Source of the DNA: Candidatus Hadarchaeum sp.
GTDB taxonomy: Archaea; Hadarchaeota; Hadarchaeia; Hadarchaeales; Hadarchaeaceae
Direction of reading: 5' to 3'
NCBI RefSeq assembly: GCF_038871235.1
Contig: NZ_JAVZIN010000007.1
Coordinates: 1 to 64,000 of the forward strand
DNA: 64,000 bases
In this document: positions 3,173 to 5,653 of the stretch, piece by piece
How the letters are laid out: the number at the start of each line of letters is the position of its first letter
How positions within the stretch are numbered: the stretch's first letter is position 1
The notes under the pieces: model-generated
Database searches by the model: none
The model's input: only the letters and a program-made list of their open reading frames with translations
Told to the model about the DNA's origin: nothing
Program-made: the position numbers and the translations under genes

Positions 3173-5653
3173 GTGGCTGAAATCAGATTGGCAATCGTTG
3201 GTGTCGGTAACTGCGCCTCATCGCTGATTCAGGGCTTGGAGTACTATAAGGAGGCGCGGGAGGATCAGTTTGTTCCCGGACTGATGCACGTCAACTTCGG
3301 CGGCTACCACATTCGCGACATCAAGCCTGTCGCCGCCTTTGATGTCGACGCTAACAAGGTTGGTCGAGATTTATCCGAGGCCATCTTCGCTCCGCCCAAC
3401 TGCACCAAGAAGTTCTGCGAGGTGCCGAGGCTGGGCGTGGAGGTCAAGAGAGGTCCGATTTTAGACGGCCTCGGCAAGTACCTCAAGCCGGTTATCCCCG
3501 TTGACCCCACGCAGCAGCCGGTGGACGTGGCGGAGGAACTCAGAAAAGCAAAGGCCGACATCTTGGTGAGCTATCTTCCCGTGGGCAGCTATGAGGCCTC
3601 GCGCTTCTACGCCCAGCAGGCGATCGAGGCGGGCTGCGGTTACATCAACTGCATACCTGAGTTCATTGTCTCAGGAAAGGAGTGGGGGGAGCGCTTTAAA
3701 AAGGCCGGGTTGCCCTGCGCTGGCGACGACATCAAGTCACAGGTGGGCGCGACGATACTGCACCGGACGCTAGCCAAGCTTCTGATCGACCGAGGCGTCA
3801 AGCTGGAGGAGAGCTACCAGCTGAACATCGGCGGCAACAGCGTAACCGGTGATGAGGAAATTCTGCTTGAGGTGGATGGAGTTTTGACTAGGGTGAGAAT
3901 CGGTGATTTCATAGATCAGATGATGGCAAAGTACCCTGTAAGCCTCAGGGATGGAAAAGAGGTGCTAGAAACTTCGACCATGAAGGAGGAGATAAGATGT
4001 TTCACTATCACTGACGATTATCAGCAGGTTCTAGCACCGGTGACGAAGCTGATCCGCCACAAGATCTCAGAACCTATTTTGGAAGTTACCTTGGCCGAGG
4101 GACATAAGATCAGGATAACGCGGGACCATAACCTTTTCACCATAGGCGACGACGGGAGATTGAAGCCGCTTCCAGGGAGAGAACTCAAACCTGGCAAGAC
4201 TTTCGTGGTCGTACCGGCCAAGCTTGTGGACGATAGGGAGGAAGTGGACGCGAGAGATCTCACCCCCTACTTCGATGGCGCCTGGGCGGTGAAAGCAGAG
4301 GAAGAATTTCTTTCTGTTCACAATCACCCTGAAATTAGCATCCCAGTGAACTTTCCTATCACTGACGAGTTTCTGCAGGTAGTCGGGCTCTGGCTGGCGG
4401 ATGGGTCATTTGATAGAAAAGATTCAGCTGCCAATCTAGAAATTGGCGTGGGTAATGATCCTGAATGTTTGGAGGTAATAAATAGATGGGCCAAAAACTT
4501 TAATGTCCAGTACGAGATCCGCGGTGACAAAAAAGTTGCGGTGAGAATTAGGTCTAAAACTATAGGGACGATAATGAAAAGGGCCTTTGGCTTAGACGGT
4601 AACTGTTACACAAAAAAGGTACCTGATTTTGTCTTCGACCTGCCGGAGAAGCAAGTGGCTCAGGTTTTGAAGGGCTACTTCAGCGGTGATGGTTGTCTCG
4701 TGGGAAAACAGGTAAGATGCACCTCTGTGTCGCAGCCTCTCATCCAGGACATCCAAACATTGCTTTTGAGGGTCGGCATTTATTCGGCTGTGTTTAGCGA
4801 GGACGGTGGAGAAAGCAGCTGGGGACCTTCCTACCAGTCCGCTAGATTGTGGCACTGTGTCATTTCCTCCCGTGAAATGCTCAAACGCTTTGTGGAGAAG
4901 ATAGGGTTCATTCAGCGCCAGAAAAATGAAGCTATCAGAAAGGTTGTGGCCAGCAGAAGTTTTGATAAATTTTTCATACCCAAGATCCGTTTAATAGAAG
5001 AAGCTGGAATTAAACCGACGACGCCATATCGACTGCCAGCGGTAGAGGGCCGGATAGTCCTCTCGCAGCTCGACCGCGTTAAAGATGGGAGAGTTCGGGA
5101 ACAACTGAGAAAACTTTGCCAGGGAGACATAAGGTTCGTGAAGGTGAAAGAGGTCAGGGAACTTCCCGCCGAGCCACGGCACGTCTATGATTTAAGCGTT
5201 CCTAGATATGAGAGATTCGTTTGCTCTAACATCTTAGTGCATAACACCGACTTCCTAAATATGCTTGAGGAGGAGCGGCTGAGTTCAAAGCGGGTGAGCA
5301 AGACCGAGGCGGTTTCCAGCCAGGTGCCCTATGAAGTCCCGCTCAGGATTGGCCCTAGTGATTACGTTCCTTTCCTTAAGGACAATAAGGTCTGCTACAT
5401 TTACCTGCGGGGCCGCAAGTTCGGCGACATCCCGTTGACGATCGACGTCAAGCTTTCAGTTGAGGACTCGCCCAACTCCGCCGGCGTGGTCATCGATGCC
5501 GTCAGGGCGGTGAAGCTGGCCCTCGACCGTGGCATCGCCGGGCCGCTGATTGGAGTCTCCGCTTACTTCTTCAAACATCCACCGGTTCAGATACCGGATG
5601 ACCAAGCGAGGCAGGCAGTGGAGGACTTCATAGCTGGAAGGAGGGACAACTGA
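3173..5653 (+). CDS. ino1: Myo-inositol-1-phosphate synthase precursor containing an intein
   Basis: GTG start after GGGGTGAT. It contains [12 protein letters not shown] (NAD binding), [44 protein letters not shown] and YFFKHPP. The joined exteins give about 357 aa. The ORF-track start at 2990 overlaps the upstream gene and is unlikely. Confidence 0.95.
3839..5245 (+). mobile_element. Intein with LAGLIDADG homing endonuclease (469 aa) in MIPS
   Basis: Block [11 protein letters not shown] (Ser1), block B ITRDHNLF (TxxH), LAGLIDADG motifs [10 protein letters not shown] and [10 protein letters not shown], block F VYDLSV and block G NILVHN followed by +1 Thr. Removing it restores GGNTDF. Confidence 0.94.

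Follow-up and report, generated by a model that had tools for sequence, protein, structure and literature searches.

The window, that is, the whole stretch of 64,000 nucleotides (nt) analysed here (Candidatus Hadarchaeum sp., assembly GCF_038871235.1, contig NZ_JAVZIN010000007.1, positions 1 to 64,000 of the forward strand), contains a gene for MIPS (myo-inositol-1-phosphate synthase) whose coding sequence is interrupted, in frame, by an insert of 469 residues. From sequence evidence we consider it highly probable that this insert is a bona fide, splicing-competent class 1 intein with a double-motif LAGLIDADG endonuclease, and that it is a selfish mobile element in MIPS. We based this reading on the anatomy of the insert, the precise empty sites in relatives, the conservation of every residue needed for catalysis and the way in which the insert has been gained and lost across populations, all of which were observed here. 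The MIPS intein is real, well preserved and mechanistically ordinary, and it is probably mobile.

The MIPS gene and the intein lie in a single open frame on the + strand (2990-5653 in the window's list of open reading frames, ORFs). The precursor is 826 residues long when read from the likely GTG start at 3173, which agrees with the starts of the homologues; translation could instead begin at an in-frame ATG at 3155. The region 3839-5245 translates without stops, in frame inside the ORF ending at 5653, with Ser1 of the intein encoded by the AGC codon at 3839-3841 and the first residue after the intein, Thr+1, by the codon at 5246-5248. The first 222 and the last 135 residues (the N- and C-exteins) make up a MIPS of the short archaeal/actinobacterial type, with a match to Pfam Inos-1-P_synth (PF01658) of 99.2 bits (cut-off 27) and a match to TIGR03450 of 473 bits, the latter falling under the 638-bit equivalog cut-off because the intein divides the match into two stretches. 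The exteins align end to end with Mycobacterium tuberculosis Ino1 (1GR0; residue ranges in Table 1), on which the modelled exteins superpose with a template modelling (TM) score of 0.91 by target. Since the N-extein ends at 1GR0 residue 233 and the second C-extein residue corresponds to 1GR0 residue 235, no host residue was lost or duplicated at the insertion.

The insertion point falls in the most conserved stretch of MIPS. For all the conservation counts we used 66 aligned full-length intein homologues, with pairwise identities down to about 37%; Q216, N218, G220, G221 and N222 before the junction and Asp+2 and Phe+3 after it were invariant in 66/66. The eukaryotic counterpart of this motif, which we paired with the archaeal one by eye and not by a tool, is one of four conserved MIPS regions and holds a putative catalytic site, according to PMC4859692. 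As the insert divides the invariant N-x-G-G-N-T-D-F motif, no synthase activity is expected of the precursor, and we considered it very unlikely that a protein with 469 residues inserted at this point is an active enzyme.

Every element that the preliminary description had read in the insert (469 residues, Ser1, a TxxH block B, two LAGLIDADG motifs and an HN/T junction splitting QLNIGGN/TDF) was found again in the sequence. We assigned the insert to class 1 on the presence of a nucleophile at position 1, the block B TxxH, the block F Asp, the terminal His-Asn followed by Thr+1, and a Hint profile. Precisely, the Hint part was matched by Pfam Intein_splicing (PF14890; 5.6e-22, 78.7 bits, cut-off 35.8) and by the NCBIfam model intein_Nterm TIGR01445 (1.6e-10, 41.8 bits, cut-off 24.5). 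In the endonuclease part, LAGLIDADG motif 1 lies inside a weak WhiA-type LAGLIDADG match (intein residues 182-235), and Pfam LAGLIDADG_3 (PF14528) spans intein residues 272-356 (1.9e-18, 66.9 bits, cut-off 22.5). An AlphaFold2 (AF2) model of the precursor, built with the 66 homologues as input, had a mean predicted local distance difference test (pLDDT) score of 88.3, with values below 50 only at residues 219-221, just upstream of the N-terminal junction. Foldseek, run on this model, retrieved PI-PkoII (2cw7, 3.5e-25), the TliVMA intein (7qss, TM by target 0.80), PI-PfuI (1dq3) and I-DmoI, and also mini-inteins and full inteins through the Hint fold. The insert had looked more AT-rich than its flanks by eye, and this was confirmed: the GC content of the intein is 48.2% vs 58.6% and 57.5% in the exteins, and the GC content at third codon positions (GC3) is 53.5% vs 76.6% and 73.3%.

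Ser1, the Thr and His of block B, the Asp of block F and the terminal His-Asn were invariant in all the 66 homologues, while the +1 residue was Thr in 65 of them and Ser in the remaining one. Each of the two LAGLIDADG Asp residues was kept in 65/66 and the Gly following it in 66/66. The frame was open in every copy of the intein, and no mini-inteins were present among the 68 same-site inteins measured. We then considered selection on the host protein. The ratio of nonsynonymous to synonymous substitution rates (dN/dS) between the window and its intein-less relative G007 was 0.032 in the N-extein and 0.010 in the C-extein (dS about 0.63-0.65), and extein dN/dS was 0.01-0.05 overall. An interrupted MIPS under such strong purifying selection only makes sense if the intein splices. 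The invariant residues, the selection on the exteins and the open frames, taken together, indicate that the MIPS intein is probably functional for splicing. As the synonymous sites of the intein are saturated, for the intein itself we used the proportions of nonsynonymous and synonymous differences (pN and pS) instead of dN/dS. Among the three Hadarchaeal inteins for which DNA was at hand, pN was 0.21-0.25 vs a pS of 0.85-0.89; for the endonuclease part, the values were 0.23-0.28 vs 0.82-0.93. With pN so far under pS in the endonuclease part, purifying selection appears to act on the endonuclease too.

In a search of 5.8 billion proteins, 72 of the 120 best matches listed combine MIPS, intein and LAGLIDADG domains. 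At least 70 public protein clusters (P0002-P0071) carry the intein at the same MIPS site; both junctions are visible in 68 of them, with inteins all 460-488 residues long, and two partial proteins each show only the junction that they cover. At the level of 50%-identity representatives, the whole same-site group is one representative (P0015). By their source names the carriers are Hadesarchaea (Hadarchaeota), Aenigmarchaeota, Altiarchaeales and Bilamarchaeaceae (Micrarchaeia), and they include the published metagenome-assembled genome (MAG) Ca. Hadarchaeum yellowstonense YNP_45, of the same genus as the window genome; beyond Hadarchaeota the spread is that of the source names, and the locus search of genome contigs reached two close relatives.

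The preliminary description had proposed a rare or new insertion site in a protein that is not a standard intein host. The second part stood, as we found no paper describing an intein in MIPS in the searchable literature, in which MIPS is not named as a host; in the 2015 intein survey PMC4760082 the word 'inositol' is absent from the main text and from two of the three supplementary files. The paper PMC3189178, which we considered as a candidate, was rejected, as it mentions inteins and inositol in unrelated sentences. The rarity of the site was not borne out, given the 70 or more public clusters with the same intein at the same position, some of them already annotated automatically. Several carriers, in fact, are labelled 'myo-inositol-1-phosphate synthase/intein/homing endonuclease' by the JGI automatic annotation. 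At NCBI some carriers (P0006, P0012, P0022, P0048, P0069, P0071 and others) are named 'LAGLIDADG family homing endonuclease' or 'hypothetical protein', a name which is given to the whole intein-bearing protein, and therefore metabolic reconstructions of these MAGs can wrongly score inositol synthesis as missing.

Within the group of the window genome the distribution is patchy. Of the 41 genomes of the order, 39 have MIPS, with none detected in G001 (71% complete) and G029 (93% complete); the intein is in 3 of these 41 genomes and in 3 of the 66 species genomes of the phylum, which leaves 63 without it. We examined 27 intein-less relatives: in every one the extein halves are joined precisely at the insertion point, within the same local protein sequence. 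Occupied and empty alleles occur on nearly identical exteins: the nearest pairs are the window vs G007 (97.5% identical) and P0007 vs G039 (98.0%). The window genome (1.2 Mb in 16 contigs, the window being on contig 7; 94.75% complete) has the MIPS intein as its only intein by PF14890 and TIGR01445; in other members of its order several inteins occur at other loci. The C-terminal intein model TIGR01443 (24 positions) missed even the known MIPS intein in the window genome and was hence uninformative.

Comparison of an intein tree with an extein tree, which the preliminary description had put forward as a check, showed that the two histories disagree. In the extein tree (42 rows) occupied and empty alleles interleave, with 11 state changes, at least five of which are forced by well-supported branches. 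The exteins of the window and P0003 are 94% identical and their inteins 64.7%, whereas for P0003 and P0004 the corresponding values are 86% and 85.5%. The intein tree groups P0003 with P0004 and places the window as their sister, and the approximately unbiased (AU) test rejects an intein clade of the window and P0003 (p = 0.000285). Between the genomes G000 and G002 the synonymous divergence is 0.85 in the intein vs 0.48-0.54 in the flanking exteins, and the GC3 of the intein is 20-25 points under that of its own exteins in all the three genomes with DNA. The patchy distribution, the incongruent trees and the low GC3 probably mark a homing element that is active, or was so until recently, and that has repeatedly invaded and been lost.

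A number of points weigh against this reading and have to be considered together. The 11 state changes are not fewer than those obtained with shuffled labels (mean 12.5; 112 of 500 shuffles were as low). Nine Hadarchaeal rows of the extein tree (P0003-P0011) and five outgroup rows had been chosen for carrying the intein, so that the tree, which mixes species genomes with metagenome proteins picked in this way, shows interleaving and not frequency. The group submitted to the AU test was named after the pairwise identities had been seen, and before the tree was seen. The strong codon bias of the exteins (GC3 73-85%) lowers their pS and may explain part of the synonymous contrast. A gradient of identity beside the junctions was looked for, and no co-conversion tract was seen; along the gene, identity to G007, G006 and G002 stays level. 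The branch leading to the window intein is long (0.38), and the nearest known relative of this intein is only 65% identical, so that no recent donor is in hand. We infer that splicing and DNA cleavage actually take place. In favour of mobility, occupied alleles turn up in independent hot-spring runs, and a single 151-nt contig from run X10 passes directly from 3835 to 5243. It leaves out exactly 1407 nt, as many as the intein has, with four differences on its long side and only 21 letters on its short side. It is a weak hint of an empty allele of a close relative in a like community. Other intein-less joints, with sides of less than 30 letters and undetermined letters between them, were set aside as most likely intein-less MIPS genes of other organisms.

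Some of these points would be expected if the element were a relic competent for splicing only, in which the endonuclease of this copy or lineage is dead, and which is inherited vertically with occasional precise deletion. We regard this as unlikely. The missing co-conversion tract and the long terminal branch, with at most 65% identity to any other intein, are in its favour, and decay does happen, as each catalytic Asp is missing from one of the 66 homologues. It is conceivable that the window copy no longer has an active endonuclease. The window copy, however, retains both catalytic Asp and both Gly residues, pN is far below pS in the endonuclease part, and none of the 68 inteins is a mini-intein. 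Moreover, loss alone leaves unexplained why the P0003 and P0004 inteins are as similar as their exteins whereas the window and P0003 inteins are so much less similar than theirs, and it does not explain the rejection of the window and P0003 clade by the AU test.

For an active homing intein, the steps can be described following the canonical chemistry of the family, from which we inferred them. The MIPS gene would be translated as the 826-residue precursor, in which the insert parts Asn222 from the Thr-Asp of the N-x-G-G-N-T-D-F motif. Ser1 would undergo an N-O acyl shift, the hydroxyl of Thr+1 would attack the resulting ester, Asn469 would cyclise with release of the intein, and an O-N shift would then leave an ordinary MIPS of 357 residues. 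The freed intein would recognise the uninterrupted sequence of the type AACATCGGCGGCAAC/ACCGACTTC (the slash marks the insertion point) in an intein-less allele and cut it, after which the intein would be copied in by double-strand-break repair (homing).

A regulatory role is not needed to account for the data. The preliminary description had supposed that splicing gates the supply of inositol phosphate, conditionally on temperature, redox state or metals; the element would be, in this case, a domesticated intein acting as a post-translational switch, which we hold to be quite unlikely. The position of the intein, which breaks the catalytic motif of an enzyme that takes the first committed step, would suit such a switch, as would the location of MIPS in an inositol cluster (with genes similar to those for archaetidylinositol-phosphate synthase and inositol kinase) and the fact that this is the only intein found in the genome. 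Temperature-dependent splicing has been reported for the RadA intein of a hyperthermophile (PMC4760082), and two cysteines inside the MIPS intein, C54 and C462, are invariant in 66/66 homologues. Nevertheless, no support was found for conditional gating. The intein is dispensable, given the intein-less genomes of the phylum and the nearly identical exteins with empty sites; frequent gain and loss, the incongruence of intein and extein and a foreign-looking GC3 fit a selfish element and not a fixed regulator; and the retained endonuclease is unnecessary for regulation. Both splice nucleophiles (Ser1 and Thr+1) are hydroxyls, so there is no catalytic cysteine for a redox trap and the known disulfide-trap control through such a cysteine is unavailable.

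A narrower form of the same idea is a thermal switch, in which some hot-spring archaea would retain the MIPS intein for the strong temperature dependence of its splicing with Ser1 and Thr+1. De novo inositol-phosphate synthesis, and with it the archaetidylinositol head groups made through the archaetidylinositol-phosphate-synthase-like enzyme, would be on only at growth temperature. We strongly doubt it, and just as strongly the accompanying idea that the inositol-kinase-like enzyme would give a salvage route independent of the intein. If it were true, a selfish element would have turned into a thermal switch on membrane lipid synthesis. The splicing of the MIPS intein may depend on temperature, and such a dependence should be taken for a side effect as long as nothing shows the contrary.

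An assembly chimera, or a dead gene in which the insertion inactivates MIPS, is barely credible: its only point is that the assembly, in 16 contigs, is of the metagenome type, whereas both junctions are spanned by contigs from three studies, the architecture recurs in at least 68 proteins of separate assemblies, and the frame is open throughout, with the extein dN/dS given above. The preliminary description had named reads showing misassembly among the things that would refute function, and the independent contigs and database proteins speak against it. In fact, the stretch is present in hot-spring metagenome runs of several studies, and contigs from three other hot-spring runs (three studies) bridge the N-terminal junction, the C-terminal junction or both. 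Run X2 is the best example, with one record covering 3274-4278 without differences and one covering 4307-5497 with two differences. All the runs were searched as Logan contigs, from which depth, expression and allele ratios are not readable. Run X10 is labelled metatranscriptomic and was flagged as probably DNA, and we therefore did not take two 151-nt X10 contigs inside the intein as transcription.

As regards its relatives, the MIPS intein shares with PI-PkoII (2cw7), PI-PfuI (1dq3) and the Tli and Pho VMA inteins (7qss, 7qst) a Hint domain with an inserted two-motif LAGLIDADG endonuclease. The sequence match to PI-PkoII is 1.3e-19, and Foldseek matched the model to these intein endonuclease structures with values from 3.5e-25 to 5.5e-24 and TM by target of 0.66-0.80. 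Their identity to the MIPS intein, however, is only 17-20%, and the hosts of these known systems are DNA polymerase, ribonucleotide reductase and V-ATPase. The nearest non-MIPS relatives are inteins of ATPases of the type II/IV secretion family (T2SSE), which we take to be the group of the Methanocaldococcus jannaschii KlbA intein; they are 29-37% identical to the MIPS intein (E from 2e-84 to 2e-42), and made up all the 10 matches examined, from ranks 2-25, in a search of 1.84 billion representatives. An intein of the T2SSE ATPase in the locus L004 also starts with Ser and ends with His-Asn/Thr. A common origin of the MIPS intein with this lineage is plausible, and the two differ in host and insertion motif, with an identity low enough to hide the direction and date of any transfer. 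As a separate observation, the loci L004 (G025:C1:29029-33435) and L005 (G032:C9) have ATPase genes whose single open frame exceeds 2000 residues and contains several inteins, one of which is the closest non-MIPS relative of the window intein. The intein of the tetraether lipid synthase Tes (NCBIfam NF045703) is another case of inteins known outside replication and repair genes; its model is matched by the endonuclease part of the MIPS intein (1.2e-20). It differs in host enzyme and site, and the match to NF045703 covers the intein portion only.

A second MIPS intein site was found in P0073 and P0077, after ...F-I-N and before Cys-x-Pro-Glu-Phe, in another conserved motif about 60 residues upstream (at about residue 161/162 of the window protein, near nt 3653-3658). 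The intein at this site is about 527 residues long, has Cys1 and Cys+1, and is unrelated to the one in the window, being 22-26% identical to it over the endonuclease and C-terminal parts. The group includes one cluster with a Bathyarchaeia-labelled member, and these were the only two MIPS intein sites among the 120 best matches listed. MIPS was thus invaded at least twice, at two conserved motifs, which supports the view that conservation of the endonuclease target, and not the function of the host, chooses the sites.

These results add an enzyme that makes a central lipid and solute precursor to a list of intein hosts dominated, according to PMC4760082, by replication, repair and nucleotide metabolism. 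The homing cycle of uncultured archaea could be studied conveniently in nature on the MIPS allele, as many occupied and empty alleles occur among close relatives, every copy has its endonuclease at full length, and the small genomes that carry it have few other inteins or none. The allele also provides an intein of the Ser/Thr type from a thermophile, and a LAGLIDADG endonuclease of new specificity.

The coordinates of the features of the MIPS gene and of its neighbours are reported in Table 1.

Table 1. Positions in the window of the MIPS exteins, the intein with its motifs, and the neighbouring genes.
Feature	Positions	Strand	Evidence
N-extein of MIPS, 222 residues, ending ...QLNIGGN	3173..3838	+	1GR0 residues 14-233, E 2.3e-82; TIGR03450 4.9e-142
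Class 1 intein, 469 residues, Ser1 to His468-Asn469	3839..5245	+	Pfam and NCBIfam matches, AF2 model, Foldseek
Intein block B, T94-R-D-H97	4118..4129	+	T and H invariant in 66/66 homologues
LAGLIDADG motif 1, G183-F191 (G183-L-W-L-A-D188-G), catalytic Asp188	4385..4411	+	Asp 65/66, Gly 66/66
LAGLIDADG motif 2, K278-C286 (K278-G-Y-F-S-G-D284-G), catalytic Asp284	4670..4696	+	Asp 65/66, Gly 66/66
C-terminal splicing region: block F V449-V454 (V-Y-D451-L-S-V) and block G ending His468-Asn469	5183..5245	+	D451, H468 and N469 invariant in 66/66
C-extein of MIPS, 135 residues, beginning Thr+1-Asp-Phe, plus stop codon	5246..5653	+	1GR0 residues 235-367, E 2.5e-44
Archaetidylinositol-phosphate-synthase-like CDP-alcohol phosphatidyltransferase	1795..2403	+	NF040950 3.6e-50, 170.5 bits (cut-off 180)
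PadR-family transcription regulator	2400..2717	-	Pfam PadR 1e-17; divergent from the MIPS gene
126-residue ORF with N-terminal CxxC...CxxC zinc-ribbon	2788..3168	+	Weak RCKP-type rubredoxin-like match 4.5e-4, no other family
PfkB-family kinase	5653..6537	+	Pfam PfkB 4.3e-21

PF01066 finds no other CDP-alcohol phosphatidyltransferase in the genome than the archaetidylinositol-phosphate-synthase-like gene, whose enzyme would consume the product of MIPS. This gene matches the phosphatidylinositol-phosphate synthases of the PDB at 3e-21 and lies about 770 bp upstream of MIPS. Between the two are the PadR gene and the zinc-ribbon ORF, whose stop is 5 nt before the GTG start of MIPS. On the other side, the MIPS stop codon overlaps the start of the PfkB kinase by one base, and the two genes are probably co-transcribed. 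Among solved structures in the PDB, this kinase is closest to TM0415 (3.4e-16) and the T. kodakarensis MI3K (3w4s/4xf6/4xf7, 2e-10); both TM0415, which is dependent on pyrophosphate (PPi), and MI3K are myo-inositol kinases, as described in PMC5931981. The PfkB kinase may yield the product of MIPS by salvage. No member of the inositol monophosphatase family (PF00459) was found in the 94.75% complete window genome. Given that MIPS lies in this inositol cluster, its likely role is the supply of inositol phosphate for archaetidylinositol. This agrees with one of the two roles, lipids and compatible solutes, proposed for the pathway in the preliminary description, and has no bearing on regulation by the intein.

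As for the PadR family, eight MIPS homologues among the proteins considered (P0088, P0102, P0103, P0110, P0112, P0115, P0118 and P0119) are fused to DNA-binding domains of the PadR or HTH_3 type.

Two further observations concern the genomes examined. The locus L038 (JASEGJ010000013.1, G009:C4) is labelled by NCBI as 'Candidatus Hodarchaeaceae archaeon', an Asgard family, and our search puts it in the family of the window genome; the label looks like a mix-up of Hod and Had. In the genome G000, a free-standing LAGLIDADG endonuclease ORF of 254 residues, with an N-terminal helix-turn-helix-like region, is at a contig end (G000:C6:106327-107091, corresponding to 828-1592 of L040). It overlaps the start of a tRNA gene (L040 1583-1696). 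The Rfam model has 71 positions and its match to this tRNA covers 114 nt, which may point to an intron in the tRNA.

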